64,000 bases of DNA from a virus, in IMG/VR virus record IMGVR_UViG_3300037493_003022, positions 49,046 through 113,045 of that record; one strand, given 5' to 3'. Both the position numbers and the translations under genes were made by a program. Below, one piece after another: positions 58,871 to 63,029 of the stretch; within the stretch, counting starts at the first letter, position 1; each line of letters starts with the position of its first letter. The notes beneath the pieces were generated by a model. The model was not told where the DNA came from and did no database searches. It was given only the letters and a program-made list of their open reading frames with translations.

Positions 58871-60271
58871 TTATCCGTGAACAGTATACCTTAATTTTTT
58901 ATACTGTCGGCGACGGAATTCCATCCCACCTTCAAAGGGATTCGATAAGTCAACGTCGTACAGATCTTCTGCCCCCTCTTTAAGAAGAACCAGCTCCATT
59001 TTTTCATCGAAGAAGTCTAAAACGACAGGGGCACCCTTTCCCTCAAAGATACGAAGAATTCTTCCAACCGTCTGTTGAATCGAATTCTGAGGGGTAGCCA
59101 TGATAAGAGTATCCAAATCAGGGATATTCAAACCTTCGCTGGCCATCTGGTAGGTGGAAAGAATGATCGACTTCTGTGCGGCTATATCGAGTTTCGCTTG
59201 TTTTGTGCCTCCCACATAGAAACCAACTTCGTCCGCTCCCATTCCTTCCGTTGCGAGGCGTTGTGAAAAATAATCAAGCTGCGCGCGCCTCTCCGATATG
59301 ACCAGAACTTTACGGCCTGCGTTATACGCCCGAATAATGTAACGAAGAACAGCTTCATTTCTACCTACATGACTAGCTAGGGCAGTTACGAGAACTGCTC
59401 GTTGAGCTTTCTTATCCAGCCAGGGTTTGTACCAAACTTTTTGAGGAATCTTAACGTCGGTCTTGATAACGTAAACGTCTGGGGTGAGCGTGCTAGCCTC
59501 CAGAACAGGCCCACTGGAGGAAATGTGCTTCGTGATTACTTTCCAGAGTCCGTCTTGTCTACTCGGGGTTGCTGTGAGGCCGAGTCGATATCTCGCTGGA
59601 AATCGGGTGATGGCCTTTTGCCAGAGGGCGGCTCCGTAGCGATGAACTTCATCGCAAATGATAAGACCAAAAGAATCATAGAAAGAATCTCCATAGTCAC
59701 GGCGACTGTTAACCACAGACTGAGTAACAGCAATGACAATATCATGCGTGCGACCCGTGTCAACAACATCTCTTTGCATCCTTCCTACTGTTATCCAGGG
59801 AGCAAGCATCCGAAAGGCTTCTTCCCATTGTTTGGCCAAGAATTCCTTATGCACAAGTATGCAGGTGGATACGCCTATTTTGAGTGCTATCTCTGCACCC
59901 ATCACAGTCTTCCCGGTTCCGCAAGCTGCGATAAGGAGACTCCCTCCTTCGCTATGGATAGTCTGTAAAGTATCTCTGATAGCTATGTCTTGACCATCTC
60001 TAGCTTTGAATAACGAGTTCTCTGTATGGTCAAGATGCCTGCCATCCGAAGTCATGTCATAAACAGTGTCTCCAATAAACGAAGTAGCGTAGCAACGAGG
60101 AATACAGACTTCTCCAAACTCCTCGTTGTATTCGTAAATCTCAAAAGTCTCTCCGTCCTTCTCTAGTTTCAATTCGTCGAGAATTTCAGGAAGCTTAGGA
60201 TGGTTTTCAGGTACGCGAAGAAACCCATCCATATCGATTCGAGTTCGTTTACTTGGCAGTTGATCTGACAT
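58871..60271 (-). CDS. Superfamily 2 DNA helicase (UvsW/SSL2-like)
   Basis: ACGTGKT, DEVH, LTAT, EGLNIP, QTVGRILR. Confidence 0.92.
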   Translation of the reverse strand: MSDQLPSKRTRIDMDGFLRVPENHPKLPEILDELKLEKDGETFEIYEYNEEFGEVCIPRCYATSFIGDTVYDMTSDGRHLDHTENSLFKARDGQDIAIRDTLQTIHSEGGSLLIAACGTGKTVMGAEIALKIGVSTCILVHKEFLAKQWEEAFRMLAPWITVGRMQRDVVDTGRTHDIVIAVTQSVVNSRRDYGDSFYDSFGLIICDEVHRYGAALWQKAITRFPARYRLGLTATPSRQDGLWKVITKHISSSGPVLEASTLTPDVYVIKTDVKIPQKVWYKPWLDKKAQRAVLVTALASHVGRNEAVLRYIIRAYNAGRKVLVISERRAQLDYFSQRLATEGMGADEVGFYVGGTKQAKLDIAAQKSIILSTYQMASEGLNIPDLDTLIMATPQNSIQQTVGRILRIFEGKGAPVVLDFFDEKMELVLLKEGAEDLYDVDLSNPFEGGMEFRRRQYKKLRYTVHG

Positions 60272-63029
60272 AGGCTTTCTCCCTTACTTTGCCATCACTC
60301 TTTGCGGAGTTCCAGTTGTCACCAATACCTGGAACAGCAGTCATTGGAGCGCGAAGAGCAACGGCATGTTCCATATGGCGTTGAACATCAGAAGCAGCCT
60401 CTTCAATAAAATCCTCAGTGGCTTCAAAAATAAGTTCGTCGTGAACCTGGGACAGAAGCTTAGCTTTCCCTTTACCCGTGTAGTAGTCATATAACACATC
60501 TCGAGAAAGCCACTCTTGATACAGATTCCTCATGGCGATTTTGATAACGTCAGAAACACTACCTTGGTCGGGAGTATTGCTAGCTTCATGTTGAGCTAGC
60601 ATTCGCTTATATGAGTTCTTATTACGTATGTCCTCGATGTAGCGAATCCGCCCGGTGATAGTCCTAACGTACCCGTGCTGTTCTGCGTACTTGTGCATCC
60701 TCTCATGGTATTTTCTAACGAGTGGATAAGTTCTATGCCAGGCATCCCAAAGTCGCTGTGCCTCTTTTTCAGAGACTCCAACGATTTTTCCTTCTTTGTT
60801 TTTCGTGTCTTTAAGTTGTCCCTGAAGAGTTTTCGTTCCCATCTCATAGATGAGTCCAAGATTAATGACCTTTCCAGTAGGACGATCGCATTTACAATTT
60901 TCAGCGGTAAGACTGTGTAGGTCAAGACCCTCGTTGTACGCTTTCAGTAGCATGGGATCTTGGGAAAGATGGGCCATCATAACAAGGTCTGCTTGGGAAT
61001 AGTCAGCGACTCCCATCTTCCAACCTTTGGAAGCTATAAACGCATTTCTTATCTTATGGCCTTCTTCTGACTTCTGAGGAATATTTTGCAGGTTAGGGTC
61101 TGAGGAATTATGATTTATGAAACCTTGGGCTACATAGGAATGATCTTCTTCTACTTCGATGTCATAGACTTCCATTGTTCCCAAAGAGAAGATTGAAGCA
61201 ATCCTATTCGCTTTTGGTGTAATCTCTGGTGACCAGCCAGAGAGCACAATGCAAGGTTGTCTAACTCGTTGTTCAATGGATTCTCGTCTATGTGATGAAC
61301 TACTAAGGAGCTTGGAAGATTCTCCGGGGAAATCTTCAGTGCCTGCGACATAACTATCCGATGAACAAAGTAGCGGACATCTCCTACTAGAGCTGTCAGA
61401 TATCCCTTGCAATCCGAGCAAACGCCCTTCCAATTGTGATGGTTCTCTCCTAGCTTCCCCTTCATGGGATTCTGATCTCCCATCTTGCTCCTGGAGTACC
61501 TCAGTTGTTTCTCCAATACCATCCGTTCTGGATCTACATTCTGCTGGAGAATGGCAACAACTGTATGGTAAGTTGTTTTTAACCGGGAACGTATCTGTTG
61601 TATCGTTGGCTTCTCTGGATCTACTAAATACTGTTCCAACACCATCTTCACTGAAACAGGGTCGTTCAGGACCTTCTTCGACACAGACATTAAACACCTC
61701 TTCTCCTGAGGAGAGTTCGCCCAAAGAACACCAACCATCTGGAGTGAGAAATCTGTGCTCTTTGGTACAGTCTATTCTGCACCCAGACTCTAAAACGACC
61801 CGGAACATTGTGTCAAGACCTTTGAGAATCTTCCTGACTATAGGTCGATATCTTCCTCGATGAGTTAGAATTTCGTCGCCTTTTATGACTTCATACTCGG
61901 AAATCTTAAAGTCTCCGCGAGTGGTTTTAAGAAGAGTATCTCCAGATACACATGCGAGACGTCCGGTACGAGTTCCACATTGATTAAAATCACCCCGTAG
62001 TCTTTCGTCCTCGTAAAGTTTACAATGCTCAATTAAAGGAAGGGTGTAGGTACTACAGAGCTTATCTAACCGTTGGAATCTAGACTTGAGTTCGTATGCC
62101 CTATAAGCGTCAGTGTCTTTAGAAATTGCATTTCCGACTCGTTCGAGGTGCCCGGCATCGACAGAATAGAATCCTGATTTGCCACGCTCAAACTTGAGCT
62201 GCTCGGCTGGCCACCATTGGAGGTCTTCATACAATCGTCGTGACACTGCTTGAGAACTTGAGATAGAGACGCCAACCAAGGCTTCAAACTGTCGGCGAAC
62301 TTCTTCAAGCTCTGTTCGGAATTCGGTGTCAAGGTCATCCAGATACTCCATGTCGATGTTGAAGCCGGATTCTTTCATGTGAACGAGAACTGGAATGAAA
62401 GGCATCTCCAAGTCGGTAAACACCTTGGTCAACTGTAGCTCTTCAAGTTCAGGCAACCAAAGATCAGCAAGACGAAGACACTGGAGAGCATCGTCGGCGC
62501 AATACTTGGTCATCGTGTCGATTGGAACATGGAACGCCTTGGAACGAGAGTTCATCACCTCTTCCCAGGTAGTCATGTTGTACTTCAAGTATTCTTTCAC
62601 GGCGGCTTTTAATTTAAGTCCACCCGCACCCTGAAGTTTCTTACCGAGAAGATATTGAAGAACCATTGAGTCGCGGATTTTATACTTAGGTTTAATGCGC
62701 AAAGTGCGAGAAACCATATACTCGAACTTGGCATTGTGAGCCCAGATTTCTTTAGTATGGTCAGTGAGTACGTTCTCAAGTATCGTCATGACTCGTTGAC
62801 GATTGGCATTGATACCGCTCGCGTGCATCATGGGAACGTAACAAGACTCTCCATCTGGGAAAGCGAATCCAGCCCCAACGACTTCTATTTTGTCGTGTTC
62901 AAGGGCAGCTTTTTCGTTGCTGGAAAAGCTAGCTGTTTCGTAATCGAGTCCTATTGAGTCAGCGGCAGCTAATTTCTCTGCCAACTTAGACAACTCTGAT
63001 GTTGTGGCTACGGTGTAGGCTTCTGACAT
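60249..63029 (-). CDS. polA: Family A DNA polymerase with 3'-5' exonuclease and intein (about 644 aa after splicing)
   Basis: DYET, HNAKFE, YCADD; TGRLA/SSDPNLQNIP, DYSQ, K..NLGLIY, QVHDEL. Confidence 0.95.
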   Translation of the reverse strand: MSEAYTVATTSELSKLAEKLAAADSIGLDYETASFSSNEKAALEHDKIEVVGAGFAFPDGESCYVPMMHASGINANRQRVMTILENVLTDHTKEIWAHNAKFEYMVSRTLRIKPKYKIRDSMVLQYLLGKKLQGAGGLKLKAAVKEYLKYNMTTWEEVMNSRSKAFHVPIDTMTKYCADDALQCLRLADLWLPELEELQLTKVFTDLEMPFIPVLVHMKESGFNIDMEYLDDLDTEFRTELEEVRRQFEALVGVSISSSQAVSRRLYEDLQWWPAEQLKFERGKSGFYSVDAGHLERVGNAISKDTDAYRAYELKSRFQRLDKLCSTYTLPLIEHCKLYEDERLRGDFNQCGTRTGRLACVSGDTLLKTTRGDFKISEYEVIKGDEILTHRGRYRPIVRKILKGLDTMFRVVLESGCRIDCTKEHRFLTPDGWCSLGELSSGEEVFNVCVEEGPERPCFSEDGVGTVFSRSREANDTTDTFPVKNNLPYSCCHSPAECRSRTDGIGETTEVLQEQDGRSESHEGEARREPSQLEGRLLGLQGISDSSSRRCPLLCSSDSYVAGTEDFPGESSKLLSSSSHRRESIEQRVRQPCIVLSGWSPEITPKANRIASIFSLGTMEVYDIEVEEDHSYVAQGFINHNSSDPNLQNIPQKSEEGHKIRNAFIASKGWKMGVADYSQADLVMMAHLSQDPMLLKAYNEGLDLHSLTAENCKCDRPTGKVINLGLIYEMGTKTLQGQLKDTKNKEGKIVGVSEKEAQRLWDAWHRTYPLVRKYHERMHKYAEQHGYVRTITGRIRYIEDIRNKNSYKRMLAQHEASNTPDQGSVSDVIKIAMRNLYQEWLSRDVLYDYYTGKGKAKLLSQVHDELIFEATEDFIEEAASDVQRHMEHAVALRAPMTAVPGIGDNWNSAKSDGKVREKAYVRSTAK
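61107..61952 (-). mobile_element. Intein (282 aa) in DNA polymerase
   Basis: GRLA|CVSGDTLL...CTKEHRFL...VYDIEVEEDHSY..QGFINHN|S. Confidence 0.92.
61151..61690 (-). CDS. HNH homing endonuclease nested out of frame inside the polymerase intein (179 aa)
   Basis: Own SD AGGAGAAGAGGTG; GENHHNWKG, KGY, VHRIVM, VVHHIDENPLNNELDNL, HQRLH. Confidence 0.85.
   Translation of the reverse strand: MSVSKKVLNDPVSVKMVLEQYLVDPEKPTIQQIRSRLKTTYHTVVAILQQNVDPERMVLEKQLRYSRSKMGDQNPMKGKLGENHHNWKGVCSDCKGYLTALVGDVRYFVHRIVMSQALKISPENLPSSLVVHHIDENPLNNELDNLALCSLAGHQRLHQKRIGLLQSSLWEQWKSMTSK

Follow-up and report, generated by a model that had tools for sequence, protein, structure and literature searches.

The locus described here is a family-A DNA polymerase gene (polA) of an uncultivated virus, in which the polymerase is interrupted by an intein and the intein DNA, in turn, holds a complete HNH endonuclease gene in another reading frame of the same strand. 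The analyzed stretch of 64,000 nucleotides (nt), hereafter the window, covers the last 64 kb, on the 3' side, of an IMG/VR viral record of 113,045 bp (IMGVR_UViG_3300037493_003022), and this record carries direct terminal repeats. The polymerase frame is a single continuous open reading frame (ORF) of 926 amino acids (aa) that stays open across the intein, with Pfam matches to DNA_pol_A (2.3e-83), DNA_pol_A_exo1 (6.9e-15) and Intein_splicing (8e-10). The intein interrupts the polymerase between ...GTRTGRLA and SSDPNLQNIP..., a point that corresponds to R668-N678, where Pol I of E. coli has its primer-contact motif. The presumed target sequence in an intein-less polA is ...GGTACTCGTACCGGACGTCTCGCA, continued directly by TCCTCAGACCCTAACCTGCAAAATATTCCT... 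The features of the locus are the following:

60249-63029, minus strand: polA precursor ORF, 926 aa, with 3'-5' exonuclease and polymerase domains and the intein within the polymerase domain (Pfam)
61953-63029, minus strand: N-extein, polA residues 1-359, C-terminal end ...GTRTGRLA (alignable to polA proteins with an intein or a mini-intein as far as the invariant TGR motif)
61107-61952, minus strand: intein, 282 aa, class 1 (Cys1 ... His-Asn, +1 Ser), polA residues 360-641 (Pfam Intein_splicing above cut-off, invariant block residues)
61680-61952, minus strand: N-terminal splicing (HINT) half, intein residues 1-91 (AlphaFold 2 (AF2) pLDDT (predicted local distance difference test) 90-96, beta strands)
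61233-61679, minus strand: intein-frame read-through of the nested gene, intein residues 92-240, predicted disordered linker (AF2 pLDDT 28-40, without secondary structure; 21% aa identity)
61107-61232, minus strand: C-terminal half of the splicing domain, intein residues 241-282, with blocks F and G (AF2 pLDDT 75-97, beta strands; the divergence phase turns to the intein frame)
61151-61690, minus strand: nested putative HNH homing-endonuclease gene, +1 frame, 179 aa and TAG, intein codons 88-268 (Pfam HNH_3, PHROG 7545, homologues, AF2 pLDDT 84)
61217-61300, minus strand: HNH catalytic motif, HNH residues 131-158, VHHIDENPLNNELDNL...GHQRLH (invariant residues; alignment to the I-HmuI HNH domain)
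61493-61678, minus strand: helical N-terminal domain resembling a helix-turn-helix (HTH), HNH residues 5-66, five helices with pLDDT ~90 (AF2; weak HTH matches)
61695-61707, minus strand: purine-rich Shine-Dalgarno (SD)-like motif AGGAGAAGAGGTG, 4 nt 5' of the ATG at 61690 (the same bases code for the intein G-E-E-V motif)
60249-61106, minus strand: C-extein, polA residues 642-926, N-terminal end SSDPNLQNIP (alignment)

The intein starts with a cysteine, contains DCTKEH as block B and VYDIEVEEDHSY as block F, and ends in ...FINHN, directly followed by a serine. This agrees with the original prediction, made from the letters of the window, of a polymerase frame that stays open through a 282-aa intein with normal splicing blocks. 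The Pfam Intein_splicing score is 42.3 bits, with a cut-off of 35.8. Across 14 aligned inteins, C1, T63 and H66 (block B), D264, E266, V267 and D270-Y273 (block F), as well as H281 and N282, are invariant. The N-terminal Cys, the T-x-x-H of block B, blocks F and G, the His-Asn end with the following Ser, the profile match and the predicted HINT fold are all those of a class-1 intein. The intact catalytic residues and the essential role of polA suggest that protein splicing takes place. In the AF2 model of the intein frame, based on 14 sequences, residues 1-91 and 241-282 form beta strands with a pLDDT of 75-97, and the 149 residues between them (92-240) have a pLDDT of ~30 and no secondary structure. 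As modeled, the polymerase-frame product is a mini-intein with a floppy loop of 149 residues. The central ~180 intein residues had been described as off-frame sequence; their character as unstructured read-through holds, and only their extent has to be corrected, the predicted unstructured part being 149 residues long.

A fractured gene, or split intein with a free-standing homing endonuclease (HEN) in the sense of Dassa et al. 2009, was considered as well and rejected, as the host gene is one continuous 926-aa ORF. One copy of the same intein family (L023:1-4470, IMGVR_UViG_3300028388_005983) misses ~34 residues right after Cys1, GRMSC running directly into WMPVVRK..., and the strands of block A are gone. 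Its polymerase frame and its nested HNH frame are both open despite the deletion. This copy may have lost splicing, represent an unusual variant or result from mis-assembly.

Read one base later on the same strand, the intein DNA encodes a protein of 179 aa, from an ATG at 61690 to a TAG at 61153-61151 (coding positions 61690-61154). The protein scores 31.9 bits with Pfam HNH_3 (cut-off 24.8) and matches PHROG 7545, 'HNH endonuclease', over residues 15-165 (E=6e-17). The intact 179-aa HNH nuclease that had been read in the +1 frame is, hence, confirmed, and so is the position of its stop inside block F: the TAG falls within the codons GTA-GAA (V267-E268). An in-frame ATG further upstream, at 61738, would give a protein of 195 aa; the start conserved among the relatives is the one at 61690. 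The nested ORF covers intein codons 88-268, and the segment that is absent from mini-intein relatives covers about codons 98-248, so that the HNH gene overprints conserved splicing-domain sequence with ~10 of its codons at the 5' end and ~20 at the 3' end. The residues H132, H133, D135, N140, N141, N145, L146 and H158 of the nuclease are invariant in 16 sequences.

The AF2 model of the HNH protein (16-sequence alignment) has a mean pLDDT of 84 and exhibits an N-terminal helix bundle (residues 5-73) and a beta-beta-alpha core (residues 98-165). In a comparison with VIA-align, I-HmuI (1u3e) ranks first, with Z 6.8 and a root-mean-square deviation of 2.6 Å over 70 residues at 26% identity (model residues 90-164). 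The top two rows of a Foldseek search of the model against the PDB are I-PpoI and I-HmuI (E=0.47 for I-HmuI), with nothing at E<=0.001; a sequence-profile search of the PDB with the HNH alignment gave no match at E<=0.01. The similarity of the N-terminal helices to the HTH domains of sigma region 4, Lrp and DeoR is weak (Z 5-5.7). The helix-turn-helix of I-HmuI is located at the C-terminus (1U3E), unlike the HTH-like domain of the nested HNH protein, which is N-terminal.

A word-indexed protein search with the intein region as the query revealed many polA proteins that match the intein over its entire length, the odd central part included, with identities of 30-59%. The closest relative, P0004, shares 59% of the intein residues. 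A central segment of ~180 residues, with a similar Ser/Arg/Gly/Glu-rich composition, is present at the same insertion site in 19 of 21 aligned polA proteins. P0007 and P0009, which are among the nearest polA relatives (56% overall identity), carry at this site a mini-intein without the residues ~98-248 of the window intein; the presence of such alleles in the nearest relatives fits a cycle of gain, decay and loss.

At the DNA level, no match to the polA gene was found by blastn in 50,697 phage records, and a scan of viral contigs with the single intein sequence gave no confirmed relative. The alignment-based scan of IMG/VR succeeded and yielded 79 loci, 21 of which were matched near full length by tblastn with the HNH protein of the window, at 38-52% identity. 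At all 21, the HNH frame is +1 relative to the polymerase frame, the latter is open for 440-1200 codons, and the third frame has a stop every few dozen codons. The non-redundant DNA-level set consists of 16 IMG/VR contigs (window included) and one contig from a metagenome-assembled genome (MAG), 17 altogether. All 17 show the +1 layout with an open polymerase frame, 160-193 uninterrupted HNH codons and invariant catalytic residues. The 16 contigs other than the window come from different samples, and the HNH proteins are 38-77% identical to one another. These contigs, and the mini-intein alleles that lack the insert, support the earlier view that an HNH gene sits out of frame in a mini-intein-type domain.

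The MAG contig was encountered in a scan of one genome per prokaryotic species. This dual-coded polA intein (L089:1650-4382, NZ_JAVLCA010000054.1) lies on a 15.8-kb contig binned with a Salibaculum sp. MAG (Rhodobacteraceae), which hints at alphaproteobacterial hosts for part of the family. The same scan revealed a free-standing HNH relative in Erythrobacter litoralis SNB-035 (L090:3001-3504, NZ_SOSI01000001.1), with no polA or intein sequence nearby; it may have escaped from an intein into a prophage or chromosomal site. Among proteins, a HMMER search with the intein alignment against 1.84 billion cluster representatives identified 321 at E<=1e-30. A profile of the central segment alone matches 146 proteins over at least 110 of its ~144 positions, among them 120 of the 139 new representatives.

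Selection on the two frames was compared by aligning the 16 non-redundant nested HNH proteins and threading their DNA onto the alignment, the core being defined as window HNH residues 5-158. Divergence by codon phase and counts of silent sites were used rather than an overlapping-gene model of nonsynonymous to synonymous substitution rates (dN/dS); most pairs are saturated. The mean pairwise nucleotide divergence of the core at HNH codon positions 1/2/3 is 0.47/0.37/0.63, and in the three closest pairs, it is 0.25-0.28/0.11-0.18/0.40-0.63. As HNH position 2 is position 3 of the intein frame, the 'wobble' base of the intein is the least variable one, the opposite of what a selected frame shows. 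In the same three pairs, 47-57% of the single-base differences are silent in the HNH frame versus 9-16% in the intein frame, and the aa identity of the core is 45% in the HNH frame versus 21% in the intein frame. The phase flips across the final 17 HNH codons, which lie over block F: the divergence at intein positions 1/2/3 is 0.37/0.29/0.46, and the aa identity is higher in the intein frame (50%) than in the HNH frame (43%). Judged by its codon phases, the element is a mosaic, its middle being selected in the HNH frame and its two ends in the intein frame. For the core overlap, the comparison supports purifying selection of the HNH frame, without any such constraint on the intein frame; the original prediction depended on such selection in the +1 frame of homologues.

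In all 16 sequences, the polymerase frame runs over the nested gene without a stop (174-193 codons each). When synonymous codons are shuffled within each HNH gene, the polymerase frame acquires a mean of 2.7-11.6 stops, and the probability of reaching zero is below 0.001 in 14 of the 16 sequences, 0.005 in one and 0.04 in one. For the window HNH, the mean is 9.1 stops, and zero was never reached in 1000 trials, consistent with the chance of about 2e-4 calculated earlier for an open frame of this length. By comparison, eight HNH homologues outside inteins (intron-borne) contain 10-26 stops in the equivalent frame, and the free-standing Erythrobacter gene (L090), which branches within the embedded clade, contains 12. 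In these sequences, stop purging is direct evidence that selection keeps the polymerase frame readable, as had been proposed for the intein frame of the window.

The alternative that survives best sees in the nested ORF a silent relic, the intein having become an immobile mini-intein that tolerates a long linker, with the polymerase frame alone still of importance. After fixation, homing endonucleases often decay, according to the homing-cycle model cited in 10.64898/2026.09.14.751524, alleles with a mini-intein occur, and the N-terminal splicing region of L023 is truncated. However, an open HNH frame with invariant catalytic residues is kept in 17/17 non-redundant DNA copies, and the substitutions track the HNH codon phase, with the third intein position the least variable, where a relic predicts the opposite. 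A relic is, hence, improbable.

In the members whose 5' end is present, the start codon of the HNH gene is ATG (11), GTG (2) or TTG (3), and the residues S-V-S-K, or a variant close to them, come next. In all of these, the conserved start is located 81-90 codons downstream of Cys1 of the intein, and the stop of the family members lies 8-44 nt before the last intein codon, within blocks F and G. In the window, GGAGAAGAGGTG sits 4 nt 5' of the ATG at 61690, which is the SD-like sequence already noticed there. A match of at least 5 nt to AAGGAGGTG is found 3-13 nt upstream of the HNH start in 11 of 16 members, versus 6.6% of background positions in the same polymerase genes; for matches of at least 4 nt, these values are 15 of 16 and 25%. 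In L006, a TAA in the HNH frame immediately precedes the HNH ATG, and at several other loci, the frame closes 1-6 codons upstream. Such closure just upstream of the start favors internal initiation over frameshifting far upstream. The nested HNH protein is, thus, probably translated separately, from its own conserved start behind an SD-like motif.

Programmed +1 ribosomal frameshifting would instead yield a fusion of N-extein, N-intein and HNH protein, with a proportionally lower yield of polymerase. The ribosomes translating polA do traverse the site, and, upstream of the conserved start, the HNH frame runs without a stop for as many as 36 codons in some members and for 27 in the window. This mechanism leaves aside the start codon at one position in every member with a 5' end, with SVSK after it and SD-like motifs before it. 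Moreover, the TAA of L006 and the closures at 1-6 codons would confine the shift to a few codons, in which no conserved slippery motif was seen, and the intron-borne HNH homologues are stand-alone proteins of the same length. Frameshifting is, therefore, very unlikely to be the route by which the nuclease is made.

A tblastn search of 50,697 phage genomes with the HNH protein matched 38 records. All eight phage homologues that were inspected lie inside a family-A polymerase gene: in two of them (Providencia PS3 and Escherichia PhAPEC7), the HNH gene is within a coding sequence annotated as joined across an intron, and in the six others, it is between two 'DNA polymerase' ORFs. At four junctions, exon 1 ends in ...TGRLSSSNPNL, ...SGRLSASEP, ...FRYSSSSP or ...TGRLSGSRP, and exon 2 resumes with (N)(L/M)QN(I/L/F)P. 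These junctions place the interruption in the P-N-L/M-Q codons, ~7 codons (~21 nt) downstream of the intein site. The group I introns with I-HmuI, I-HmuII, I-BasI and I-PfoP3I classically sit at this point, and these enzymes are placed together with I-TslI and phiL7 gp45 among the HNH endonucleases that nick DNA (PMC3428280). I-HmuI and I-PfoP3I are known to nick the element-free allele site-specifically, and the 14-bp recognition site of I-PfoP3I maps around the intron insertion site (PMC3428280). The phiL7 protein P45 is itself a direct tblastn match (~40% identity), and the other intron-borne members are 38-43% identical over most of their length. In a maximum-likelihood tree of 28 HNH proteins, which is unrooted, the ten intron-borne or split-gene sequences form one group, with a Shimodaira-Hasegawa-like approximate likelihood ratio test (SH-aLRT) value of 99. 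A single change of context between intron and intein suffices to account for this tree, in either direction. The nested nuclease probably derives from the HNH genes of group I introns at almost the same position of polA.

The annotation of the closest phage HNH relatives in polA introns at almost the same position (PMC3428280) also raises the question of whether the insert of the window is removed as RNA, being a group I intron with an HNH gene whose intein-like ends are a coincidence. An Rfam scan of positions 60800-62300 gave no group I intron or other family near the gathering score, only chance-level matches; this is weak evidence, since the scan at the gathering threshold also revealed no group I intron at four related loci (L081-L084, from PS3, PhAPEC7, Dor1 and ABW311), two annotated as intron-joined and two with a split polA. 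In all members, however, the polymerase frame runs through the insert without interruption, where the intron-borne homologues have 10-26 stops, and the ends of the insert carry all blocks of a class-1 intein, above the Pfam cut-off and with a HINT fold at a pLDDT above 90. Removal as RNA is, for these reasons, highly improbable. Given the blank Rfam result at the related phage loci, their status as introns rests on the annotation of the records and on PMC3428280. Either their introns are too divergent or too interrupted for the model, or some of them are split genes without a ribozyme.

The least likely alternative, which the original prediction had itself raised, is an assembly or sequencing artefact, in which the HNH gene is truly in frame with the intein and two compensating indels fake the overlap: the record is indeed an uncultivated viral genome from a metagenome, and a single-base change near the AAAA run before block F with another near the HNH start would fuse the frames, but two such indels in one assembly cannot explain a layout conserved across the family, with the same +1 relation and start position on 16 further non-redundant contigs from different samples and the frame-0 translation in ~146 independently predicted proteins, sequencing errors cannot produce the avoidance of polymerase-frame stops, and a search for the HNH fused in frame within longer proteins (315-2000 aa) found none (weak evidence), so that the layout is real.

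The element is more conserved than the gene that carries it. In pairwise comparisons of the 14 members with complete genes, the exteins (~500 flanking residues) are on average 27% identical, the splicing halves 49% and the HNH proteins 45%; between the window and L028, these values are 18%, 53% and 47%. That a selfish insert is twice as conserved as an essential polymerase suggests that it has spread by transfer among divergent phages.

Altogether, the locus is best read as a dual-coded intein with a separately translated, I-HmuI-like HNH homing nuclease, in which the intein is spliced out together with its linker. We give this reading a probability of about 80%. Ribosomes would initiate at the ATG at 61690 and produce a free HNH protein of ~20.6 kDa, presumably the homing enzyme of the element and most likely a nickase. 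This enzyme would nick the conserved DNA coding for TGRLSS-PNLQNIP in the intein-less polA of co-infecting phages, as the intron-borne relatives do, and repair of the nicked polA would copy the intein and the HNH gene together. In the precursor, the two HINT halves would fold around the disordered loop, and splicing would discard the intein with its junk linker, leaving the polymerase unharmed. Selection would then preserve the HNH reading in the core and the intein reading at the two ends, and it would remove any stop from the polymerase frame.

Several observations weigh against this reading. The bases of the SD-like motif also encode the conserved G-D/E-E-V of the intein, so its enrichment may reflect protein conservation and not ribosome binding; moreover, L003 is without an SD-like match, and some members start with TTG. 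The structural match to I-HmuI is limited to the catalytic core and is of middling strength (Z below 8). The intein site is ~21 nt upstream of the classical intron site, so insertion of the intein need not disrupt the target of the nuclease. The higher similarity of the intein than of the extein could partly reflect differing evolutionary rates, and the identities of extein and element are positively correlated (rho ~0.49). Finally, the proof at the DNA level covers 17 non-redundant members, and in the other ~130 proteins, the +1 HNH frame is presumed from its frame-0 shadow.

A more far-reaching proposal is that a polA-specific HNH lineage switched carrier once, between a group I intron and an intein ~21 nt apart, and that the +1 dual-coded intein is a long-lived form that spreads horizontally in hundreds of divergent phage polymerases, with the translation of the nuclease uncoupled from polymerase synthesis and splicing. 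This proposal is tentative, and we consider it rather less probable than its negation. If it is true, the switch of carrier would be direct natural evidence for the model of 'splicing element first, endonuclease invades later', as well as for an exchange of homing genes between elements that splice at the RNA level and at the protein level.

Downstream of polA, a helicase ORF (58871-60271, minus strand; PHROG 16 DNA helicase, 3.6e-46) starts 23 nt before the polA stop. The overlap of the two ORFs (60249-60271) is consistent with translational coupling in a minus-strand replication module. In some polymerases with this intein family (P0010, P0011, P0028 and others), the polymerase is fused to an N-terminal uracil-DNA-glycosylase-like domain (PF03167). 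Some long proteins of the representative search contain up to 10 intein-like stretches (e.g., P0167, 2788 aa).

With at least 146 signature proteins and 17 DNA-confirmed non-redundant members, the family indicates that an out-of-frame design can be stable and successful, and the tie of the nested nuclease to the I-HmuI/I-PfoP3I group offers a concrete case for the acquisition of an endonuclease by an intein. The nested HNH gene is wholly missed by gene callers. A "Ser/Arg/Gly-rich" intein segment of ~150 aa in metagenomic polA is, accordingly, to be read as a translation shadow and not as a domain. Splicing domains that tolerate a disordered insert of 150 aa may also serve as scaffolds for intein engineering.

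The textbook intein fuses its splicing domain to an endonuclease domain in a single frame. Departures from this design have been described in the inteins of actinobacteriophages, where in-frame HNH endonucleases occur beside HENs on the antisense strand (LAGLIDADG or Vsr-like) and an endonuclease VII-like HEN in 'frame 3' of the same strand (Gosselin, Arsenault and Gogarten, 10.1101/2025.01.02.630785). These authors call the out-of-frame architectures rare, propose an invasion of the intein by free-standing HENs and find signs of continuing transfer. As in their non-canonical inteins, a separate HEN ORF occupies the endonuclease slot between the splicing blocks, off frame and under purifying selection, the extein frame is open, and the overlapped intein frame is relaxed; its translation of the slot is structureless, and the HEN frame folds. 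Their HNH endonucleases, on the contrary, are only in frame, and the host genes are those of terminase, a minor capsid protein, ThyX and a DNA polymerase. Here, an I-HmuI-like HNH_3 nuclease is found in the +1 frame of a family-A polymerase intein, in uncultivated phages, with a conserved SD-like motif and well over a hundred diverged members.

The cyanobacterial dnaX intein contains an out-of-frame LAGLIDADG gene with a low dN/dS in the nested frame (Phillips, DeSimone and Gogarten, 10.64898/2026.09.14.751524), and Phillips et al. credit Gorbalenya 1998 with the first suggestion of an out-of-frame intein endonuclease. Both systems have an overlapping ORF under purifying selection, an unconstrained extein-frame translation of the overlap and coexisting mini-intein and intein-free alleles; for dnaX, the authors favor a secondary invasion of a mini-intein (10.64898/2026.09.14.751524). 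The dnaX host gene is, however, cellular (DNA pol III gamma/tau), and its nested ORF is a LAGLIDADG gene in '+2', unlike the putative nickase-type HNH gene in +1 of a phage polA. In view of these two preprints, which concern other nucleases and host genes, the expectation that the architecture was uncharacterized does not hold.

A hidden out-of-frame HNH gene has also been described without any intein, in phage DNA methylases with a ShiLan domain (Arsenault, Gosselin and Gogarten, Genes 2025, PMC11855218). There too, the HNH gene is overprinted on an insertion that is free of stops in the host frame, and the in-frame product is predicted to be a loop. That insert, however, stays in the mature protein, no ribosome binding site was detected, and leaderless initiation at GTG was proposed (PMC11855218), whereas a complete HINT domain flanks the read-through of the polA intein, which should be spliced out. 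The fractured genes of Dassa et al. 2009 (PMC2677866) have their N- and C-intein halves separated by a free-standing HEN gene, the 3' end of which overlaps the C-intein coding region by 6-69 bp. The model of gene invasion and the position of the HEN between intein halves are the same; the difference is that fractured genes consist of two ORFs joined by trans-splicing, with GIY-YIG or Vsr-like HENs, and that in polA, the host ORF is continuous and overlaps the whole HEN gene. A full-text literature search showed that none of the Gosselin, Phillips, Arsenault and Dassa papers describes an HNH_3 gene overprinted in a family-A polymerase intein.

The closest comparison is with the intron-encoded HNH endonucleases of polA (I-HmuI, I-HmuII, I-BasI, I-TslI, phiL7 gp45 and I-PfoP3I; PMC3428280), which share with the nested nuclease the protein family, the host gene and nearly the same hot spot. 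Those genes reside in group I introns or between the parts of a split polA, with removal at the RNA level; the gene described here resides in an intein, is dual-coded and would be removed at the protein level. The general arrangement has been described in the preprints of 2025-2026, and what is new is the type of nuclease, the host gene, the frame and the large size of the family. Of greatest interest is the apparent connection with the I-HmuI group carried by introns.

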